Origin: a phage
Reading direction: 5' to 3' (one strand)
DNA: 64,000 nucleotides
Sequence record: PZ445523.1
Shown here piece after piece: positions 3,359 through 34,499 of this stretch; position 1 is the stretch's first letter, and each line of letters begins with the position of its first letter. The notes beneath the pieces were generated by a model. That model was given only the letters and a program-made list of their open reading frames with translations. It was not told where the DNA came from and did not search any database. The position numbers and the translations under genes are program-made.

Positions 3359-3855
3359 AAAGTTTTAATAACCTCTACAATATCGTCTTGAGAAAGACCG
3401 TTAATTAAAATATGGTGTTCAGCTGGAGATTTAGAAATTTTAAAGCATGCCTCAACATCTTCTGCCATATCCGATGCACTACGATTTGGATTACTAATTC
3501 CAAGACGATGCTTTCCAGTCAAAGGATTAACAATAATGTAGCATTTACAACTATTGATATGAACATTAGGTTGAGTCTGATTAATGAACACTTCACAATC
3601 ATACTTAGCGAGTTGATTTTCTAAAAAGACTTTCATCTCTTCAACCGCATCAGGAAGCATATCACGGGCTTGCTCAAGACGACGATTTCGATATTCTTTA
3701 ATGGTCGTTTTCCGCTTGACTTGCTTAGCTAAATCTTTCTTAAGATCGGTGATATATCCAACTCGACGATTTCCTTTAAATACAGAAATCCCATCTGTAG
3801 TATCACCGTATGCTTCAACGACCATTTCTGTAGTAATAAGTTGTAAATCCATCAT
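3349..3855 (-). CDS. alc: Alc-like host transcription termination/unfolding protein
   Basis: 168 aa (T4 Alc 167 aa) at the syntenic position between pseT.3 and rnlA; early promoter element 3880-3915 upstream. Confidence 0.55.
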   Translation of the reverse strand: MMDLQLITTEMVVEAYGDTTDGISVFKGNRRVGYITDLKKDLAKQVKRKTTIKEYRNRRLEQARDMLPDAVEEMKVFLENQLAKYDCEVFINQTQPNVHINSCKCYIIVNPLTGKHRLGISNPNRSASDMAEDVEACFKISKSPAEHHILINGLSQDDIVEVIKTLCM

Positions 3856-3916: not shown

Positions 3917-5528
<1,612 letters not shown>

Positions 5529-5531
5529 TCC

Positions 5532-6710
5532 TTAAAAGTATTTTTTAAAACTCATCATAACTTTATCATCAACATCATTATCAATCTGTGCAACAAGGTA
5601 AGATGACAGTTCTACTTCTTGTGGCGCGGATTGAACATTATCAGAATTAAGATATTCACGAATCCAAGGATATGGATGTTTAACCGGAGCATCGGTAATT
5701 GGGCATGGAAGACCACACTGCTTCATACGAGATACAGTTAAGTAATCAATAAAGCTCCACATGCTATTTGTATTTAATCCAGGAACATCGCCATCTTTAA
5801 ATAAATGAACTGCCCAATCTTTTTCTTGGCGGTTAACTTCCATGAAAATATCAACTGCTTCTTGCTCACACTCTTGAGCAATTTTAACCCATTCATCGCC
5901 ATCAGTGCCAAGTTGAAGTTGACGAATAATATATTGAGTGCCTTTAAGGTGAAGCTGTTCATCACGTGCAATGAACTTCATAATCTTGGCATTACCTTCC
6001 ATGATTTCCATATTCTTATGAAAGTTAAAGGTACATGCAAAAGATACATAAAAACGAATAGCTTCCAATGCGTTGATTACATGAAGGCAAAGATAAAGAG
6101 ATTTCATTAGTGCTCGTTTAGCTTCGGCTTCTTGTTTAATAGCTCGATTTAAACGAAAATCAGCATCAGGAGATTCTTTAGCTAGTTCTACAAATTCTTT
6201 AGCATTTTCCCATTCACGAGTTTTAATCAGAACATCATCATAATAACGTCCAATGGATTCAGCACGTTTCATAATAGCTTCATCTAGTACAATCTCATCA
6301 AATACCTTTGACGGATCAGTATAAAGATTTCGCATGATATGTGTATATGAACGGCTGTGAATAGTTTCACTAAAAGTCCACGTAGCAACCCATGTATCAA
6401 GGCTCGGGTCTGAAATTAATGACATAAGTACAGCAGACGGCGCACGACCCTGAATGCTATCCAAAAGCGATTGATACTTCAGATTATTAGTAAAAATATT
6501 TTGCTGATACTGAGGAAGCTTATTAAACTGTGCAGCATCCATCATTAAGTTTACTTCTTCGGGACGCCAGAAAAATGACAATTGCTTTTCGGTCAAATCT
6601 TCAAAAACTTTATGGCGTTGAATATCATAACGTGCAATACCAAGACCTGAACCAAAAAACATAGGTTCTTTTAAAACATCAACTGGATTTGTATTAAAAA
6701 CTGTGCTCAT
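5532..6710 (-). CDS. nrdB: ribonucleotide reductase small subunit, uninterrupted
   Basis: 392 aa continuous ORF; ferritin-like di-iron protein at the T4 nrdB position. Confidence 0.9.
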   Translation of the reverse strand: MSTVFNTNPVDVLKEPMFFGSGLGIARYDIQRHKVFEDLTEKQLSFFWRPEEVNLMMDAAQFNKLPQYQQNIFTNNLKYQSLLDSIQGRAPSAVLMSLISDPSLDTWVATWTFSETIHSRSYTHIMRNLYTDPSKVFDEIVLDEAIMKRAESIGRYYDDVLIKTREWENAKEFVELAKESPDADFRLNRAIKQEAEAKRALMKSLYLCLHVINALEAIRFYVSFACTFNFHKNMEIMEGNAKIMKFIARDEQLHLKGTQYIIRQLQLGTDGDEWVKIAQECEQEAVDIFMEVNRQEKDWAVHLFKDGDVPGLNTNSMWSFIDYLTVSRMKQCGLPCPITDAPVKHPYPWIREYLNSDNVQSAPQEVELSSYLVAQIDNDVDDKVMMSFKKYF

Positions 6711-6761: not shown

Positions 6762-9026
6762 TCATAATTTACAGGATGAACAATCTTCAGCTTTTGGAGT
6801 TTCTATTTCATAATCATCAGTACCAGAACCATCGCGGGTATTATGATAATAGAAATTTTTTCCGCCAAAATACCAAAAATACAAAAGGTCATCAATCATT
6901 ATTGACATTGGAACCTTTCCTTTTGGAAAAATCTGCGGGTCATAGTATGTATTCGTTGAAGCTGATTGACACACCCATTTCAGCATAATAGCTACCTGCG
7001 TAAGATAAGGTTTATTACCTTTCTTAGCTAATTTCCACGTATAATCATATAGGTCTATGTTATGCTCAATATTGGGCACGACTTGATTAAAGGAGCCCTC
7101 TTTTGATTCTTTAACAGAGACTGGTCCACGTGGAGGCTCGATACCGTTTGTACTGTTAGAAACTTGGGAAGATGACTCACATGGCATAAGTGCTGATAAT
7201 GTGCTATTACGGATGCCAAAGAGCTTAAGGTCTTCCCGCAGCGACGACCAGTCACAAACGTATTTTGGAGCTGCGATTTGGTCAATCTTTTTATTGTACC
7301 AGTCGATAGGTAATTCGCCTCGAGACCAACGAGTGTCTGAATAATATTCGCAAGGTCCTTTTTCTTTGGCGAGCTTAATGGATGCTTTAATGAGTCCATA
7401 CTGTAATCTCTCAAATAGTTCATGTGTTAAATCGTTAGCATCTTCATAAGAAGCAAAGTTACTTGCCAGCCAAGCTGCATAGTTGGTAACACCTACACCG
7501 AGGTTACGACGCTTTTTGGCTTTTTCTGCTTCAGGAACCGGATATCCTTGGTAATCCAAAAGATTATCAAGAGCACGAACTTGGACTTCTGCCAATTCAT
7601 TAATTTTATCTTGGTCTTGCCAATCAAAGTTATCCAGCACAAATGCTGATAACGTGCACAATCCAATTTCAGCATCAGGGCTATTCACATCATTTGTTGG
7701 AATAGCAATTTCACAGCACAAGTTACTCTGACGAATAGGTGCCTTTTCACGAATAAACGGAGTGTAGTTATTCGTATTATCAATGAACTGCACATAAATC
7801 CTTGCTGTTCCTGAACGTTCAGTCATGAGCAATTCAAATAGTTCACGAGCTTTAATACGCTTTTTACGAATATTAGGGTCTTTTTCTGCTGCTTCGTATA
7901 ATTCACGGAAACGGTCTTGGTCTTTAAAATAAGAATAATAAAGCTCTCCACCCATTTCATGTGGACTGAACAAAGTAATGTAATCGTTCTTTCCAAAACG
8001 TTCCATCATTAGGTCATTCAGTTGAACACCATAATCCATATGACGGATACGGTTTTCTTCTACACCTTTGTTATTTTTCAAAACGAGAAGATTTTCAACT
8101 TCCAAATGCCAAATAGGATAATAAGCAGTTGCAGCGCCGCCACGAATTCCGCCCTGTGAACATGATTTAACAGCAGTCTGAAAATGTTTCCAAAAAGGAA
8201 TAACCCCAGTATGGCGTACTTCACCCATGCCAATCTTAGAACCTTCGGCACGAATCATACCAACGTTAATACCAATTCCAGCGCGTTTAGAGATATATTC
8301 AACAATCGAAGCGGAAGCCTTATTGATAGACTTCAGCGAATCACCTGCCTCAATAACAACACATGAACTAAACTGTCGAGTCGGAGTACGACAACCAGCC
8401 ATAATAGGAGTTGGTAATGAAATCTGTCGAGTAGATACTGCTTCATAAAAACTAATAACATGTTTTAATCTATCAACAGGTTCATCTTGATGCAATGCCA
8501 TTCCAATAGTCATAAATGCAAACTGCGGAGTTTCATAAATTTGACCAGTGGTTTTATCTTTAACTAGATATTTTTCTTTTAATTGCATCGCCCCGGAATA
8601 AGTAAATTCCATATCCCGTTCGTGCTTAATTTTTGATTCTAAAAATGTAATTTCTTCTGCTGAATATTTTGACAATAATTCAGGGTCATATTTACCTTCA
8701 TTTACACAATAAGAAATATGGTCAATAAATGAACGTGGTTCATACTGTCCATAAACATGCTTACGAAGAGCAAACATTAAACAGCGTGCAGCTACATATT
8801 GATAATCAGGCTCTTCAACTGAAATAGAATTCGCAGCAGCCTTAATGACAATAGTCTGAATATCATCAGTTGTCATTCCATCACGGAGATAAGATTTAAT
8901 ATTTTCATATAATTCATAAGGATCTACTGATGTTCCTTCAGCTGCCCAAGATAAAACTTTAATAATTTTTTGCGGGTCAAAGCTCTGAGAAACACCACTA
9001 CTTTTGATAACATTAATTAATTGCAT
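6762..9026 (-). CDS. nrdA: ribonucleotide reductase large subunit
   Basis: 754 aa, same length as T4 NrdA; class I RNR alpha features. Confidence 0.95.
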   Translation of the reverse strand: MQLINVIKSSGVSQSFDPQKIIKVLSWAAEGTSVDPYELYENIKSYLRDGMTTDDIQTIVIKAAANSISVEEPDYQYVAARCLMFALRKHVYGQYEPRSFIDHISYCVNEGKYDPELLSKYSAEEITFLESKIKHERDMEFTYSGAMQLKEKYLVKDKTTGQIYETPQFAFMTIGMALHQDEPVDRLKHVISFYEAVSTRQISLPTPIMAGCRTPTRQFSSCVVIEAGDSLKSINKASASIVEYISKRAGIGINVGMIRAEGSKIGMGEVRHTGVIPFWKHFQTAVKSCSQGGIRGGAATAYYPIWHLEVENLLVLKNNKGVEENRIRHMDYGVQLNDLMMERFGKNDYITLFSPHEMGGELYYSYFKDQDRFRELYEAAEKDPNIRKKRIKARELFELLMTERSGTARIYVQFIDNTNNYTPFIREKAPIRQSNLCCEIAIPTNDVNSPDAEIGLCTLSAFVLDNFDWQDQDKINELAEVQVRALDNLLDYQGYPVPEAEKAKKRRNLGVGVTNYAAWLASNFASYEDANDLTHELFERLQYGLIKASIKLAKEKGPCEYYSDTRWSRGELPIDWYNKKIDQIAAPKYVCDWSSLREDLKLFGIRNSTLSALMPCESSSQVSNSTNGIEPPRGPVSVKESKEGSFNQVVPNIEHNIDLYDYTWKLAKKGNKPYLTQVAIMLKWVCQSASTNTYYDPQIFPKGKVPMSIMIDDLLYFWYFGGKNFYYHNTRDGSGTDDYEIETPKAEDCSSCKL

Positions 9027-28555: not shown

Positions 28556-29016
28556 TAGTAAAGGTCCTCAGAGTACAGTTCTTTTTCACTACCACCACGT
28601 TCAATACGTACTTGTCCAGCGTAAGTTGCAATAATCATTGCTTCTTCACGTGTCCAATAATTACTATATTGGTCAATAAACCCTTGGTCATCATCACAAA
28701 CTTGTTGAGTAACTAATTGAGGTTTAACTACATCTAAAACTTCTGCCATATCTTTAGAATAATGACGAGCACCTGGAATAATAAGAATTCGTCCATCTTT
28801 TAATTTAAAACGATTAGCTGCGCAGACAATTCGTCGTTGATACTTTTGGTTTTCATCCCAGTACGCAGTCTGCCAACAGATTTCAGGAACTTCTTTCAGA
28901 ATATCTTCTTCTGTGCATTTATAACCATGCGCTTTAAATTTTTGAACAAGACTCTCCGGAGTCTCACGAGATAAAGGAACATTTAGCATTTTTAAACGAT
29001 TAATAAATGGGTTCAT
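28555..29016 (-). CDS. hypothetical protein
   Basis: 153 aa ORF. Confidence 0.45.
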
Positions 29017-29342
29017 TTAAACCATCCTTTAATACGTTGCCACAAAGTTTTCTGCTGAGCTTTGTTAACACCAATTGAACGAATAACTGGTTGAGATTCC
29101 TGAAATTCTTTATAATCAGCAAGGTAAATTTCGTAAGCTGCATCTGTAAATGAACTTATCGCTGCCATAAAATTATTACGAATACCTATTGGAGCATCTT
29201 TACTTTCACGAATAATCATATATTTACCAGTCTTAATCTTTACAATAGTTCCAAGATAAGCTCCATGGTACCAAATATCCCAACCCTCTTGAGTAGGTTC
29301 TGCACAACGACGAAGTTCATTGACAATTTCTAACTTGTTCAT
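29013..29342 (-). CDS. hypothetical protein
   Basis: 109 aa ORF directly upstream of motA. Confidence 0.45.
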
Positions 29343-29352
29343 TATTTATTCC

Positions 29353-29988
29353 TCACAGTTCAGATGCTACAGTGATTACAGCTTCAATGTTTTCTGCCGA
29401 GCGTTTAATGTCAAGATACACATTACCGTTTTTAGCGATTTTACATGACATTCCGATGTCAGTAAATTTCTGAATATGATGTTCCATCATTTTGTATCCA
29501 AAAATTCGCATATTTCCATTGTTGTTAATTTCAAAATTACGAATTCCGTGAGTACGTTTTTCTAAAATAGCGAGATAGTTACTACGATAAGTTTCAACCT
29601 TTTTAAGAACAAATCCATTTTCATCTAAAAGTTTTAACATGAAGTCTTTATCTTCTTCCATATCGGAAGTAATTTCGCGAGCTTTACGAGTTGCTCGTTT
29701 TTTCAGCAGTTCCGGAGCATTTTCTTGTGCGTATAAAGTTGCTGCATTTGAAATAATATCCTGAGCTTCGCCTGTAATGATTAATCCATCACCAGATTTC
29801 TCTACCAGGCCTTTTTTAATCAATACCCCAATATTACTATTAACTACTGCGTTACCTAAATCTGGATGCACCTCACGAACTTCTGCAGCTGTAATGAAAT
29901 CTTTCTTAGCAATAGTAATTAAAATCGCAGCAGTTTTTTCATTCAGAACATCGTTAGAAGCTTTGATGATGTAAGTTACTTTAGACAT
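29353..29988 (-). CDS. motA: middle-transcription activator MotA
   Basis: 211 aa; sequence MSKVTYIIKASNDVLNEKTAAILITIAKKDF matches T4 MotA. Confidence 0.93.
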   Translation of the reverse strand: MSKVTYIIKASNDVLNEKTAAILITIAKKDFITAAEVREVHPDLGNAVVNSNIGVLIKKGLVEKSGDGLIITGEAQDIISNAATLYAQENAPELLKKRATRKAREITSDMEEDKDFMLKLLDENGFVLKKVETYRSNYLAILEKRTHGIRNFEINNNGNMRIFGYKMMEHHIQKFTDIGMSCKIAKNGNVYLDIKRSAENIEAVITVASEL

Positions 29989-30023
29989 TTTCTAATCTCC
30001 GTAATTCTGTATCAGTAGTTGAT

Positions 30024-30059
30024 AGTTGTATAGTACCACAGTATGCTTTGGTTGTAAAC
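30024..30059 (-). promoter_or_regulatory. phage early promoter (repeat family copy) upstream of motA
   Basis: Minus strand GTTTAC (30059-30054), 18 nt, TACTAT (30035-30030). Confidence 0.6.
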
Positions 30060-30077
30060 CATTTTGTGAAAAAAATT

Positions 30078-30107
30078 AAAATAAAAAGGGAGAGCCGAGG
30101 CTCTCCC
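30078..30107 (-). terminator. rho-independent terminator between motA.1 and motA promoter
   Basis: GGGAGAGCC/GGCTCTCCC hairpin followed on minus strand by TTTTTAT. Confidence 0.65.
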
Positions 30108-30113
30108 TAAAAT

Positions 30114-30262
30114 TACTGCATGACTGTGATAACTATCATGATAACACGTTGAATTCCGAACGCAAGAAGACCTCCTGCTACGGCTGGAACAACACCTAAC
30201 CCCGCAAGTAAAATGCTACCAGATACTAATGCAGCGCTTGTAATACCAATGAATGGACTCAT
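30114..30262 (-). CDS. small hydrophobic membrane peptide (motA.1 position)
   Basis: 48 aa ORF MSPFIGITSAALVSGSILLAGLGVVPAVAGG...; ATG overlaps gene 52 stop (ATGA); terminator hairpin downstream. Confidence 0.4.
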
Positions 30263-31587
30263 TTGATTTCCTCTAAATCTTTGGTGTATTCTGTAACTAC
30301 ATCAGTAGTTTTCCAATATTCGTTTTCTTCTTTTTTAGCTTTAGCTTCTTCAGCAAGTTTCTTCGCTTCATCGGAAGTCATATGAAAAATATTCATTCCA
30401 ACTAGTTTATCAACATAAGAAGAATACATATCAATTTTAGAAAGTTCTTCGGTCAGTTCTTTACGAGTTTTACCCTGTACAACAATTTCACCTGAAATTA
30501 CTTTCTTAATGAAATGTGCCTTGGCAAAGGCTAAACGAAAAGCTGACTCAGTTTCTTTAATTTTGTTATCAATTCGTTTTTGGACATAAGTTTTACGAAC
30601 TTCAACGAAGTCTTTAATTAAATCAACTACGTTATCGTAAACTTGTAGCTTTCCTTTCTCATTAATGACGGTAATATTCTGAGAACGACGCTCAATCAGT
30701 CCGAAGTCTTTCATAATTTTTGCATGGCGTTCTTCTTCGTTATCGCTCAAAGAATATTCTTTACGGAATTTAACTTTGAATCCAAAACCATGCTCACCAC
30801 AAGCATCATCCCATGTAATGAAGCCTTTATCTTCAAGTGGATCTAAGATTTTACTCACATAAGTTTCACGATCATACTTATACGGAATCTCAGTGATATG
30901 CATTTGAGTTCGTGAAGTAAACTTATATGTTCCACGAATTTCATATTGACCGTCAATCTCAACGACTTCACCACGAAATTCTGGGAATTCTACCTTTGGT
31001 TTAGTTACTTTCTTTCCTTGAAGAGCTTGTAATACAGCTTTCTTAACAGAAGAAACACTATGAGGAAGAATGTAAGTTGCATAACCAGTTGCAATACCGG
31101 AAACACCATTAAGAAGAACGGTAGGAATAATAGGCAAATAGAAAGCAGGCGGAATGTGTTCTTTATCTTGATGTACCGGAGCATACTCAGTATCTTTATA
31201 TACGTTATAGAAATTTTTACTTACACGAGCAAAAATATAACGACTTGCCGCTGCTTTTTGAACGGTACGAGAACCAAAGTTTCCTTGACCATCTAACAAA
31301 GGAAAGTTATTATTCCAAGTATTAGCCATCAAAGCTCCCGCATCTTGTGCAGAGTTTTCGCCATGATGATATCCAAGGTCCGCTACACCACCTGCGATAG
31401 AAGCGAGTTTGTGAAACTTATCTTTATTCCCTCGTGCCAAATCAAGAGCTCGAGCAATAACAAATCGTTGAACTGGCTTAAATCCATCAATCATATTTGG
31501 GATAGCACGATTTTCAACCGTGTACATAGCATAAGCCAATGCTTCATTATCAATGATACTTTTTAAATCGCGATTATTCAGTTGCAT
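30259..31587 (-). CDS. 52: DNA topoisomerase II medium subunit gp52
   Basis: 442 aa, same as T4 gp52; GyrA-like cleavage/religation subunit. Confidence 0.93.
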   Translation of the reverse strand: MQLNNRDLKSIIDNEALAYAMYTVENRAIPNMIDGFKPVQRFVIARALDLARGNKDKFHKLASIAGGVADLGYHHGENSAQDAGALMANTWNNNFPLLDGQGNFGSRTVQKAAASRYIFARVSKNFYNVYKDTEYAPVHQDKEHIPPAFYLPIIPTVLLNGVSGIATGYATYILPHSVSSVKKAVLQALQGKKVTKPKVEFPEFRGEVVEIDGQYEIRGTYKFTSRTQMHITEIPYKYDRETYVSKILDPLEDKGFITWDDACGEHGFGFKVKFRKEYSLSDNEEERHAKIMKDFGLIERRSQNITVINEKGKLQVYDNVVDLIKDFVEVRKTYVQKRIDNKIKETESAFRLAFAKAHFIKKVISGEIVVQGKTRKELTEELSKIDMYSSYVDKLVGMNIFHMTSDEAKKLAEEAKAKKEENEYWKTTDVVTEYTKDLEEIK

Positions 31588-31591
31588 AAAT

Positions 31592-31732
31592 TTACCATAC
31601 TAGTGAATGTAGTGCCATAATAACATCAGAAATGAAAAGCACGACTTGAATTAATCCTAACATTACTCCATAATATAATGCTACCAATAAAGTAGCAAGG
31701 GCTAATGAATAGCCCAAGATTTTCTTAATCAT
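31592..31732 (-). CDS. small hydrophobic membrane peptide (T4 ac position)
   Basis: 46 aa ORF MIKKILGYSLALATLLVALYYGVMLGLIQVVLFISD... translated by hand from the minus strand. Confidence 0.35.
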   Translation of the reverse strand: MIKKILGYSLALATLLVALYYGVMLGLIQVVLFISDVIMALHSLVW

Positions 31733-31883
31733 TAGTAGATAACAACACAAATGTTAAATATGCACACATACCCTGGGCTAAAGCTTGTGAAAACACACTG
31801 CTAGCATCGATACAGATAGTTAAAACACATGCTACTATCCAACAAATAAATGAAATAACTCCTAATAATTTTGCAATATTCAT
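31725..31883 (-). CDS. small hydrophobic membrane peptide
   Basis: 52 aa ORF MNIAKLLGVISFICWIVACVLTICIDASS...; overlaps neighbour by 8 nt. Confidence 0.35.
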   Translation of the reverse strand: MNIAKLLGVISFICWIVACVLTICIDASSVFSQALAQGMCAYLTFVLLSTND

Positions 31884-31890
31884 ATTTTCC

Positions 31891-31971
31891 TCACTGGCGT
31901 CCGAAGACGCCTTTAGTTTTAAGATTGTTACGATAGAACTGCATCACATGTTCGTTATGGAAATTACTCAT
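31891..31971 (-). CDS. stp: Stp peptide (restriction-enzyme inhibitor / PrrC activator)
   Basis: 26-codon [29 protein letters not shown], matching the T4 Stp peptide as I recall it; ATG overlaps ndd stop. Confidence 0.75.
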
Positions 31972-32429
31972 TAATATGCCTGCAAAACAAATTTAAAGTT
32001 ATCAGCCAACATACGGTTCATTTCTTCAAGTGTTTGATACTCAGAATGATGATTACGAGTAAATGCCAAAGCTAACTGACCTTTACCAAATCCTGTCGTC
32101 AGAGGTTTCATCTTAGAAGCAGGAAGATAAAATACTGTGTATGGAACATTGTTATTTGCAATAGTACGTGCAAGCTGAGACCGACGTTGACGAATATGAC
32201 TTAGAACTGCACTGAATCCTTGCTTAGAACGCTGATTACCTACATAAAATCGTGCAGACACGCACGGATTACTAAATGGACGACCATCTAATTTACTCAC
32301 TAAAAAGTAAAATCCAGGTTTAGATAAAATATCTTTATGCGGAGTTCCCAAAAACCACTCACCACCCTTGATTGTACCAATAATAGTTGCGCCTGCATTG
32401 TTCAGATCAGTAACAGTCATATATTTCAT
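31971..32429 (-). CDS. ndd: nucleoid disruption protein
   Basis: 152 aa (T4 Ndd 151) at the syntenic position. Confidence 0.8.
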
Positions 32430-32490
32430 ATTAATTTCCTCTAAAATTATTTTCTACTCCAAGGCCGCATGAATACACACGGCCATTAAA

Positions 32491-32706
32491 TTAATCGTCG
32501 CAGTCGACGCTCAATTCCCAAAACTCTTCTACGGTATAAGTTTCAGTATCATTTTCAATACAGAAACGTTCATTACTATTATTTTCTAAAGTAGCGTTAA
32601 CTGTCATTTTCTCGCTGGTGCTCTTAAGAGGTGAAATACGAATTAACTGATCACCGTTATCTAAACAAAAAATTTCACCAACTTTTACATCTTTAAAAAT
32701 TTTCAT
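32491..32706 (-). CDS. hypothetical protein (ndd.1 position)
   Basis: 71 aa acidic ORF. Confidence 0.45.
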   Translation of the reverse strand: MKIFKDVKVGEIFCLDNGDQLIRISPLKSTSEKMTVNATLENNSNERFCIENDTETYTVEEFWELSVDCDD

Positions 32707-32714
32707 AATTCACC

Positions 32715-32822
32715 TCAAGGAGTATAAAATCCAAATGCAGTTGTTGACCATCCCATCCAATATGGGAAATTTGCACCAATGTAAAACATAAGAATATAAA
32801 ACCAACCGCTCAGCAAATTCAT
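32715..32822 (-). CDS. small hydrophobic peptide
   Basis: 35 aa Trp/Phe-rich ORF MNLLSGWFYILMFYIGANFPYWMGW... Confidence 0.3.
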   Translation of the reverse strand: MNLLSGWFYILMFYIGANFPYWMGWSTTAFGFYTP

Positions 32823-33040
32823 CATTTTACACCATTCCAAATTGTTTCAACCACGGATTTTAAACCATTTTGATGAATATCAATTCCGACTACTGTCATC
32901 AAATAGATTCCAACTACAACTGAACCTAAGGCAAAAATCAGCATGAAAATGAATAAAGCCGGAAAAATATTATCGAAAAACCATTCAATAAATGTAAAAG
33001 CATTACGTTTACGCTTCATATTTTCCTCACATAAATCCAA
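32822..33040 (-). CDS. small membrane protein
   Basis: 72 aa ORF with TM helix (FPALFIFMLIFALGSVVVGIYLMTVVGI). Confidence 0.45.
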   Translation of the reverse strand: MDLCEENMKRKRNAFTFIEWFFDNIFPALFIFMLIFALGSVVVGIYLMTVVGIDIHQNGLKSVVETIWNGVK

Positions 33041-33140
33041 AATAAACGTTTAATACATCAATCATTAAAACGATTGGGAATATACTCAAAACTACTAGTA
33101 TTATAACTACATTCCATATAGCTTTAATAATCTTTTTCAT
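33027..33140 (-). CDS. small membrane peptide
   Basis: 37 aa MKKIIKAIWNVVIILVVLSIFPIVLMIDVL...; track ORF extension to 33275 reads through the promoter repeat. Confidence 0.4.
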   Translation of the reverse strand: MKKIIKAIWNVVIILVVLSIFPIVLMIDVLNVYFGFM

Positions 33141-33205
33141 TTTGTGTTCCTCCGTAGTTGATAGTTGTATAATACCACAGAGGAACAGTCTTGTAAACAA
33201 CTTTT

Positions 33206-33304
33206 TTAAAAATATTCGTAATAAATGTGAATACCAACTACTACCGCTGAAACCTGTGCAACCCACCACGCACAAGCAATAAGTACAGAATTCAAAATTT
33301 TCAT
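33206..33304 (-). CDS. small hydrophobic peptide
   Basis: 32 aa ORF MKILNSVLIACAWWVAQVSAVVVGIHIYYEYF. Confidence 0.3.
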   Translation of the reverse strand: MKILNSVLIACAWWVAQVSAVVVGIHIYYEYF

Positions 33305-33383
33305 AATAACCTCATCACAAAAGTAAATGTTAAACAAATTACTGGAATACTAATTAACCAAACAAAACACCACCATAATGAAC

Positions 33384-33656
33384 TCATAGTTCAATCTCAG
33401 CGATTTTCATTTCATTACTATTAATAGCCGCTTTAAGACTATCTGAAAGAATTACATTCCAGTGGTCATTCATATGACCATTAACTAAGCGTGTAATTTC
33501 TTCGGGAGTTGAAAAATAAGGCGTATCAGACTCCCAATGCGATAATCCTAAGCGAGTATAAATCATACCTTCATCATCGCTAGAATATTCAACTGACACA
33601 AACTCATCAGTTATTTTATGCTTAGCATAATAAAATTTAAATTTCATTTTACTCAA
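33384..33656 (-). CDS. hypothetical protein
   Basis: 90 aa ORF. Confidence 0.45.
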   Translation of the reverse strand: MSKMKFKFYYAKHKITDEFVSVEYSSDDEGMIYTRLGLSHWESDTPYFSTPEEITRLVNGHMNDHWNVILSDSLKAAINSNEMKIAEIEL

Positions 33657-33871
33657 TAATCCGCTAAAAGATCAACGATTGCATCACGAAGACACTTATT
33701 CGCAATACGTTTAAGAGCAATTTCAGTTTCTGGAGCATTTTGAATAATCATTGAATTCAATTCAGCCTCAGCAAACTGAAGTTCTTTAACTAATTCAGCT
33801 TTATATTTTCCTTGTCCTTTCTTAGCTTTTGCTCGTTTTAATTCAGCTGTAGTAAACATTTTATTCTCCAA
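33653..33871 (-). CDS. hypothetical protein
   Basis: 72 aa ORF; early promoter element 33881-33940 upstream. Confidence 0.45.
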   Translation of the reverse strand: MENKMFTTAELKRAKAKKGQGKYKAELVKELQFAEAELNSMIIQNAPETEIALKRIANKCLRDAIVDLLADY

Positions 33872-33941
33872 ATCCGTATCAGTAGTTGATAGTTGTATAG
33901 TACCACGGTCCTTGTGGTATGTAAACCGTTTTGTGAAATTT

Positions 33942-34499
33942 TTAAATGGAAAGATACCATCCGTTGTAGTTGCTTTTTCTTACAACCTTACGAAGGTCTT
34001 CTCTGTCACCGATGAACTTCGGAGTGTACTGGATGACACCTGGATGAATTTCTTTAGTGTTGAATATAATTATACAGTCAGCGACTTGATGATTTAGAAT
34101 GGGCCCTAGATTTATTCCAGAACCATATGGATACTCTCCGCTGCATCCTGTTGTCACCGAAATCCAACGTGAGTCAGTTTGATGTGTCTTAACTTCTACA
34201 CGAAGCCCACAGTATCTTGGATGTGCTAAAACATCCCATGCATATGTGTACGGATCATCGACATCTTCTTGACCTTTATTGACATATCCACTTAGCCAAT
34301 CTGCCACAAAAAACTCTGCGTACACAGCGATACGGCATCTTTCGATAACTTCTGCTTTATCCTGGTTCGGGTTTTGTTTTAAAGAATATCTTGCTGTATC
34401 AGCAATTTTGACCTTCATTTCACTAGTCAAGTCACTGTTCGATAGGGTAAATGTCGGAATCTGAAATAGTCTCTGTAACCCAGGATTCGTTTTCTGCAT
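33942..34499 (-). CDS. denB: endonuclease IV
   Basis: 185 aa, same as T4 DenB; syntenic upstream of ndd block. Confidence 0.8.
   Translation of the reverse strand: MQKTNPGLQRLFQIPTFTLSNSDLTSEMKVKIADTARYSLKQNPNQDKAEVIERCRIAVYAEFFVADWLSGYVNKGQEDVDDPYTYAWDVLAHPRYCGLRVEVKTHQTDSRWISVTTGCSGEYPYGSGINLGPILNHQVADCIIIFNTKEIHPGVIQYTPKFIGDREDLRKVVRKSNYNGWYLSI

Follow-up and report, generated by a model that had tools for sequence, protein, structure and literature searches.

Eight short open reading frames (ORFs) lying between motA and denB in a stretch of phage DNA of 64,000 nucleotides (nt; sequence record PZ445523.1, hereafter the window) are intact, frame-conserved protein-coding genes under purifying selection, and they encode peptides of 28–65 residues (aa) that consist almost wholly of one or two predicted membrane-spanning hydrophobic segments. 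We consider it very probable that this array represents the known early small-peptide genes of phage T4 (here motA.1, 52.1, ac, ndd.2, ndd.2a, ndd.4, ndd.5, and ndd.6), whose products would be translated early and modulate host machinery from the membrane. We note that the T4 literature and databases already record the genes, the predicted membrane nature of their products, the repetition of the promoters, and how plastic the region is.

Eight conserved small genes between motA and denB

Comparison of window positions 29900–33950 with 50,697 phage records by megablast returned matches in 903 of them. The best match was Escherichia phage RB14, with 97.0% identity over 100% of the query, and because of this match we assign the phage, as judged from nucleotide identity, to Tequatrovirus (T4-like); T4 itself matched with 96.4% identity over 89% of the query, and RB14 and RB32 are closer to the window phage than T4 is. 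Every gene from 29.3 to 34.5 kb lies on the minus strand, with transcription running from denB to motA, and the genes of the window pair one-to-one with those annotated in RB14 and T4 (Table 1). The interval is the early region from motA to denB of a T4-type phage, classically termed the 'D region', and belongs to the hyperplastic regions. Gene order, strand, lengths, and junction overlaps are shared with T4 (NC_000866 T4p263, T4p265–266, T4p270–275), and amino-acid identity is 92–100%. The window differs from T4 in having, from ndd.6 to denB, two additional ORFs for soluble proteins (one homologous to RB14ncORF269c, the other to RB32ORF266c), in encoding a 52-aa variant of Ac with an extra Thr, and in carrying an intact ndd.2a, which in the T4 reference is split by a missing G.

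An initial annotation, made from the letters alone, had listed six small ORFs in this interval together with stp and ndd. All six are present on the minus strand where it placed them, apart from the first, which ends at 30113 including its stop codon and not at 30114, and by reference to RB14 and T4 they are motA.1, 52.1, ac, ndd.2, ndd.4, and ndd.5. Its naming of Stp (26 aa) and Ndd also holds, the former matching PF08133 (E = 2e-21) and the latter being 97–99% identical to its Tequatrovirus homologues. Two further members of the array, ndd.2a and ndd.6, were absent from that list, ndd.6 extending beyond the end that had been given for the array.

To each peptide we assigned the score of its best 19-residue Kyte-Doolittle window. 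Seven of the eight contain a segment hydrophobic enough to span a bilayer (motA.1 2.26, 52.1 2.41, ac 2.74, ndd.2a 2.71, ndd.4 3.05, ndd.5 2.17, and ndd.6 2.33). The exception is ndd.2, which reaches only 1.17 and has no charged residue, with Phe, Trp, and Tyr making up 34% of the peptide; the other five of the six originally listed ORFs score 2.17–3.05. The longest of the eight, ndd.2a, has a basic N-terminus (MKRKRN), a hydrophobic core of ~30 residues, and an amphipathic C-terminal tail. Among all minus-strand ATG-initiated ORFs of 26–70 aa in the window, 21.5% reach a score of 2.0, and simple arithmetic from this background rate puts the odds of seven of eight array ORFs doing so by chance at ~1 in 10^4. 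The bins from 28 to 36 kb hold 10 of the 28 minus-strand ORFs that reach 2.0 in the window.

We compared the array with 20 related loci, 13–15 Tequatrovirus loci covering the site of each gene. The homologous ATG and an ORF of equal length are found in every Tequatrovirus locus that covers the site, the exceptions to equal length being T4 Ac (a one-codon difference) and one read-through ndd.6. Counting the fewest changes needed in each codon column, we obtained for the eight ORFs combined 78 synonymous changes (over 223.5 synonymous sites) and 32 non-synonymous ones (over 808.5 non-synonymous sites), a ratio of non-synonymous to synonymous rates (dN/dS, or ω) of ~0.11 (binomial p = 4e-28). Read in the +1 and +2 frames, the same alignments give ω of 1.38 and 1.23 and contain 66 and 18 stop codons, respectively. 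Conservation and dN/dS, which the initial annotation had proposed as a check, thus bear out its small ORFs. Taken singly, the synonymous to non-synonymous counts are 14:2 for motA.1, 8:3 for ac, 10:5 for ndd.2, 22:5 for ndd.2a, 8:3 for ndd.5, 6:3 for ndd.6, 6:5 for 52.1, and 4:6 for ndd.4 (per-gene ω within Tequatrovirus 0.05–0.38), with p < 0.03 for seven of the eight and p = 0.12 for ndd.4. The weaker within-genus cases are supported by comparison across genera: 52.1 against its Mosigvirus counterpart gives pS 0.72 and pN 0.18, and its C-terminal 27 residues are almost invariant over three genera; ndd.4 against Dhakavirus gives pS 0.74 and pN 0.24; and ndd.6 has recognisable homologues in both Mosigvirus and Dhakavirus.

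In tblastn searches of the phage collection, seven of the eight peptides were found in 463–752 of the 50,697 records each (motA.1 in 493), and the 32-aa ndd.5 returned no match. The low-complexity filter or the shortness of the query probably accounts for this null result, because ndd.5 is 94–100% identical in all 14 of the Tequatrovirus loci that we compared locally.

Two accounts that dispense with the peptides can be weighed against these data. The first holds that the ORFs are untranslated chance products of an AT-rich genome in which T-rich codons (Phe, Leu, Ile) mimic hydrophobicity; the background of hydrophobic ORFs in the window is indeed considerable, and T4 proteomics detected none of the peptides. 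Nevertheless, start codons and lengths are kept in relatives, the synonymous excess is confined to one frame while the other two are stop-rich, 52.1, ndd.4, and ndd.6 are conserved across genera at saturated synonymous sites, each gene has either a GAGG-type ribosome-binding site or a start/stop overlap, and point mutations in ac have a phenotype. The second attributes the conservation to constraint on the nucleic acid itself, be it promoters, folding of the mRNA, or processing sites; in its favour, the region does have promoter cassettes that are conserved and several stable hairpins, one with a UUCG loop. These elements, however, sit in intergenic gaps outside the small ORFs, and such constraint does not predict what is seen, namely variation at the synonymous positions of one frame only. 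Both accounts are therefore rejected on the frame-specific pattern of substitution, which effectively refutes the chance-ORF explanation and makes constraint on nucleic acid extremely unlikely as well.

Table 1 Features of the motA–denB region of the window, in order of transcription
Feature	Coordinates	Strand	Length (aa)	Description
denB	33942-34499	-	185	
Promoter copy 3	33870-33938	-		TTTACA-17-TACTAT with TG; -35 starts 33925, -10 ends 33897
orf266c	33653-33859	-	68	RB32ORF266c-like by homology; soluble; variable cassette gene
orf269c	33384-33647	-	87	RB14ncORF269c-like, homologue of RB14ncORF269c and RB69ORF270c; soluble; absent from T4
ndd.6	33301-33387	-	28	One predicted transmembrane segment; ATGA overlap with upstream 87-aa ORF
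ndd.5	33206-33304	-	32	One predicted transmembrane segment; ATGA overlap with ndd.6 stop
Promoter copy 2	33142-33210	-		TTTACA-17-TATTAT with TG; -35 starts 33197, -10 ends 33169; leader unstructured
ndd.4	33027-33140	-	37	Lysines at N-terminus, then one predicted transmembrane segment; GGAGG Shine-Dalgarno
ndd.2a	32822-33019	-	65	Pfam DUF7248
ndd.2	32715-32822	-	35	Uncharged, 34% aromatic; start overlaps ndd.2a stop
ndd.1	32491-32706	-	71	Acidic, soluble
ndd	31971-32429	-	152	Nucleoid disruption protein
stp	31891-31971	-	26	Hydrophilic; start overlaps ndd stop by 1 nt (TAATG)
Hairpin	31896-31911	-		UUCG tetraloop, directly 5′ of the ac ribosome-binding site
ac	31725-31883	-	52	Two predicted helices joined at D26-A27; GAGG Shine-Dalgarno
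52.1	31592-31732	-	46	Pfam DUF7396; start 8 nt inside ac end; no Shine-Dalgarno
gene 52	30259-31587	-	442	Topoisomerase II medium subunit
motA.1	30113-30262	-	49	Gly/Ala-rich, hydrophobic, sole charged residue R39; GAGG Shine-Dalgarno
Terminator	30087-30108	-		Intrinsic terminator of the gene 52/motA.1 unit; 9-bp GC-rich stem, then U run
Promoter copy 1	30003-30071	-		Drives motA; TTTACA-17-TACTAT with TG; -35 starts 30058, -10 ends 30030
motA	29353-29988	-	211	

Possible actions of the peptides on the host envelope

Two sets of published T4 data bear on when the genes act and on what. A time-resolved omics study of T4 found the transcripts of motA.1, 52.1, ac, stp, ndd.2, ndd.2a, ndd.3, ndd.4, ndd.5, and ndd.6 to be early and detected Ndd and Ndd.1 as proteins (PMC9697503 Table S2). 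The T4 deletion sa-delta-9, which removes 52.1 through denB, is viable, yields phage at about half the wild-type rate, and abolishes phage-stimulated phosphatidylglycerol synthesis (PMC6071114).

The best characterised of the peptides is Ac. The window protein is 96–100% identical to other Tequatrovirus Ac proteins (phrog_2501, E = 3.7e-25), its gene lies between stp and 52.1, upstream of gene 52, as in T4, and it carries the D26-A27 hinge, G38, and the extra-Thr variant described for PP01. Deletion or mutation of ac in T4 leads to acriflavine resistance, the substitution G38R in Ac is reported to confer the same resistance, and expression of Ac sensitises E. coli to acriflavine and ampicillin (bioRxiv 10.1101/2025.06.30.662393). 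The authors of that preprint propose that Ac blocks AcrAB-TolC, a proposal repeated elsewhere (PMC13250531); classical work, as far as it is summarised in the same preprint, read the phenotype as raised permeability to the dye. G38 falls within a motif, SVFxQAxxQG, common to the window Ac and to a 34%-identical Mosigvirus Ac. Tandem ac paralogues, one of Tequatrovirus type and one of Mosigvirus type, are present in phiC600P9 (comparison locus L014, 2387–2545 and 2556–2711), and both carry this motif with its Gly at residue 38. In the Dhakavirus KIT01 (locus L009) the places of motA.1 and ac are taken by small transmembrane peptides of 34 and 53 aa (4392–4496 and 5959–6120) for which no similarity to T4 motA.1 or ac could be detected; in these two Dhakavirus slots, position and physicochemistry are kept and sequence is not.

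AcrZ, a bacterial small inner-membrane regulator of 49 aa, binds AcrB. The array peptides are like it in size and in having one or two transmembrane helices, and Ac has its hypothetical published link to AcrAB-TolC; sequence similarity to AcrZ was absent in a search of the PDB with four of the peptides, and the likeness would be one of mechanism only.

We envisage that the peptides would be translated within the first minutes of infection and would insert into the host inner membrane, most of them with the N-terminus inside, as their basic N-termini would lead one to expect under the positive-inside rule. Once there they would work on host membrane machinery by stoichiometric action, not by catalysis. 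Drug efflux would be the target of Ac, probably joined by 52.1, its coupled neighbour and the better conserved of the two, and the envelope or lipid metabolism would be that of at least one ndd.x peptide. We offer only tentatively a more specific version, in which every conserved slot may have a host inner-membrane machine of its own and encode a stoichiometric modulator dedicated to it: RND efflux pumps for Ac with its coupled partner 52.1, and phospholipid synthesis for one of ndd.2 to ndd.6. The idea of a membrane-directed takeover of the host, raised by the initial annotation, is plausible, with experimental backing for ac only and indirect backing from the phenotype of sa-delta-9. The role in superinfection exclusion that it raised alongside is pure conjecture, because searches of Pfam, NCBIfam, and (with four of the peptides) the PDB revealed no similarity to the exclusion proteins of T4 or to other families of known character.

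Several points weigh against early-made membrane modulators. The protein products of the ten early-transcribed T4 genes listed above went undetected by shotgun proteomics (PMC9697503 Table S2), a result that we take to be uninformative for these peptides because they have zero or one tryptic site, and a literature search for ribosome profiling of T4 found nothing relevant. Insertion into the inner membrane and topology are predicted from hydropathy alone. The within-Tequatrovirus signal of selection is weak for ndd.4 and for 52.1 (4 synonymous and 6 non-synonymous changes, and 6 and 5, respectively). Only ac, among the eight, has a known phenotype, the block of efflux by Ac is a hypothetical preprint proposal, and no functional study of motA.1, 52.1, or ndd.2 to ndd.6 came up when the literature was searched by their names. 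Finally, no likeness to AcrZ emerged: the eight peptides have no above-cut-off match in Pfam or NCBIfam to holins, type I toxins, AcrZ-like regulators, or Imm and Sp, and a PDB sequence search with ac, motA.1, 52.1, and ndd.2a found no chain at E < 0.4, AcrZ entries included. A bacteriocin-51 match for Ac in NCBIfam was dismissed (14.8 bits against a cut-off of 150).

The peptides could instead be real and serve mainly defence or competition, through superinfection exclusion, protection against membrane-acting abortive infection, or counter-defence. The T4 proteins Imm and Sp (superinfection exclusion) and rI, rIII, and T (lysis timing) are small phage envelope proteins, and Imm and Sp are early, like the array genes; they differ in being larger (~80–220 aa) and encoded elsewhere in the genome, and the eight peptides have no Pfam match to these families. 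The neighbours of the array are annotated as conflict genes (stp triggers PrrC, the arn genes are anti-restriction genes, and rII guards against exclusion by prophages), phage growth on laboratory hosts does not require the region (as sa-delta-9 shows), the array sits in a hyperplastic region shuffled by promoter-early stem-loop (PeSL) cassettes (PMC4122927), and the unrelated transmembrane peptides in the motA.1 and ac slots of Dhakavirus represent turnover typical of arms-race genes. Conversely, within Tequatrovirus the genes are strongly conserved with no sign of diversification, searches of Pfam, NCBIfam, and the PDB (PADLOC lying outside the search) gave no similarity to T4 exclusion proteins or defence families, and Ac, the sole characterised member, alters drug accumulation. 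As the principal role of the array we regard conflict as rather unlikely, and for some of the peptides exclusion or counter-defence is a live alternative.

It is improbable that the peptides shut down the host by damaging its inner membrane, depolarising or permeabilising it in the manner of type I toxins, pinholins, or glycine-zipper channels. Their size and composition do resemble those of such peptides, motA.1 is rich in small-xxx-small motifs, and the classical interpretation of the ac phenotype, so far as the preprint relates it, points the same way. T4, however, requires the membrane to stay energised for the whole latent period, expression of the genes is early, and holin and toxin families are unmatched in Pfam and NCBIfam. 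Furthermore, only six of 45 Mosigvirus early proteins slowed growth, in a set that may or may not include homologues of the array (bioRxiv 10.64898/2026.09.14.751387).

Promoters, gene junctions, and cassette exchange

An early promoter with its leader, 69 nt in all, occurs three times in the region. The initial annotation had described the small ORFs as interleaved with repeated early promoters; the repetition is real, but the middle copy alone lies within the array. An 18-nt core of the leader has exact matches in the window at these three copies only. The broader pattern TTTACW-N17-TAYWAT has fourteen matches in the window (at 934, 12428, 13160, 17047, 27593, 30058, 33197, 33925, 38206, 42277, 43394, 50678, 54350, and 60322); all fourteen lie on the minus strand, the plus strand having no match. 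Two early transcription units, each starting at a promoter of sigma-70 type, appear to serve the array: one from the promoter at 33925 through orf266c, orf269c, ndd.6, and ndd.5, and another from the promoter at 33197 through ndd.4 (the first gene downstream of this internal promoter), ndd.2a, ndd.2, ndd.1, ndd, stp, ac, 52.1, 52, and motA.1, closed by the strong terminator at 30087–30108 (-19.5 kcal/mol, z = -5.0). A strict search for MotA boxes found no middle promoter. A relaxed MotA-box-like element (TGCTTTTC ... TATTAT; TGCTT-type) at ~31641 on the minus strand, inside 52.1, could be a middle promoter for gene 52.

Adjacent genes are closely packed. Overlaps of a few nucleotides, which the initial annotation had reported, occur at six junctions and measure 1–8 nt: gene 52/motA.1 4 nt (the ATG of motA.1 overlapping the gene 52 stop as ATGA), ac/52.1 8 nt, ndd/stp 1 nt, ndd.2a/ndd.2 1 or 4 nt, ndd.6/ndd.5 4 nt, and orf269c/ndd.6 4 nt. 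The larger ndd.2a/ndd.2 value would correspond to an ndd.2 of 36 aa, if the adjacent ATG at 32825 is the start. Five further junctions are gaps of 4–8 nt. GAGG-type ribosome-binding sites precede motA.1, ac, ndd.2a, ndd.4, and ndd.5. Translation of 52.1, stp, and ndd.2 probably depends on coupling to the upstream gene, because these three have no Shine-Dalgarno sequence and their starts fall within or at the stop codon of the gene before them. The genes ac and ndd.2a share an exact 16-nt repeat (31879–31894 and 33015–33030) that takes in the ribosome-binding site and initial codons of each (GTGAGGAAAATATGAA on the coding strand).

In sequence and position the promoters match PeSLs, regulatory cassettes that are mobile in phages of the T4 type (Arbiol et al. 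2010, PMC2839356; Comeau et al. 2014, PMC4122927). All three window copies fit the PST/T4 PeSL consensus, TTTACW-N17-TAYWAT (Comeau et al. 2014, PMC4122927), and they sit at the borders of gene cassettes that vary among relatives; indeed, PeSL-mediated exchange has been illustrated at ndd.4/.5 (PMC4122927). A stem-loop or terminator lies close upstream only at the motA copy (30087–30108), whereas the copies at 33197 and 33925 adjoin the preceding gene and no hairpin was detected there. Upstream of ndd.6, T4 has neither of the two extra ORFs, JoYop has orf266c only, and the window has both, and AV120, Sf21, and OE5505 have an extra ORF, of 75 aa in some phages, between motA and motA.1. The repeated promoter cassettes may also be sites of recombination through which phages swap small accessory genes.

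Database families and the state of annotation

All ten small proteins of the interval match a PHROG family over their full length, among them motA.1 (3487), ndd.2 (4135), ndd.4 (3098), ndd.5 (5011), and ndd.6 (8851), with E values from 1.6e-17 to 6.3e-31. In Pfam, 52.1 matches DUF7396 (77.2 bits against a cut-off of 27; positions 1–46 of 46), ndd.2a matches DUF7248 (67.8 bits against 27; model positions 6–57 of 58), and Stp matches PF08133, Nuclease_act (75.3 bits against 25); PF26886 is recorded for relatives of motA.1. The motA.1 relatives in a large protein database are all at least 84% identical and come from phages or phage-like contigs, and we therefore see no bacterial family for this peptide. 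One of these relatives is named 'flagellar motor protein MotA [Shigella flexneri]', and motA.1 is mislabelled 'transcriptional regulator' in several phage records (e.g. L014 775–924 and L015 1157–1306).

The small genes had been said to fall below the cut-offs of standard ORF calling. This is apt for 52.1, stp, and ndd.6, which often go unannotated (of 10 Tequatrovirus records compared, three annotate full-length 52.1 and stp, and two annotate ndd.6), but curated records list all of them; none is missing from the T4 reference, where notes like 'predicted membrane protein' are attached. That reference (NC_000866.4) lacks one G in codon 2/3 of ndd.2a, reading ATGAA-CG against ATGAAGCG (NC_000866.4 locus 3533–3729; locus L002 3519–3716; window 32822–33019), and its annotation therefore shows two genes in place of one, 'ndd.3' (26 aa) and a shortened 'ndd.2a' (40 aa). 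A single intact ndd.2a of 65 aa (DUF7248) is found in T4 'wild' (KJ477684), in the window, and in 13 other Tequatroviruses. In RB69, a stretch left empty in the record holds a 28-aa homologue of ndd.6 (54% identity) and an adjoining hydrophobic ORF of 36 aa (the pair at 6946–7056 and 7053–7139 of locus L008); vB_EQ1 annotates only the 36-aa member of the pair.

Directly downstream of motA, the window encodes Arn.4 (109 aa; 29013–29342, minus strand), with 78% identity to RB69 Arn.4. By its size and its position beside motA, we infer that it corresponds to Gp94 'Emp' of the Mosigvirus AV110, which is reported to bind MreB/C/D and disturb peptidoglycan synthesis (bioRxiv 10.64898/2026.09.14.751387). 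The T4 reference arn.4 spans only ~68 aa by its coordinates and may be another split gene.

Taken together, these comparisons flag annotation problems in the family, in that 52.1, stp, and ndd.6 are often absent from records and the T4 reference splits ndd.2a, and the conservation data mark the peptides as worth single-gene genetics. Two old phenotypes, acridine sensitivity and phage-stimulated phosphatidylglycerol synthesis, map to the interval. Were each slot to hold a dedicated modulator, an ndd.x peptide acting on phospholipid synthesis would explain the phosphatidylglycerol phenotype of sa-delta-9, and the array would be a phage counterpart of the AcrZ-type small-protein regulators of bacteria, carried in cassettes that are swapped by PeSL recombination.

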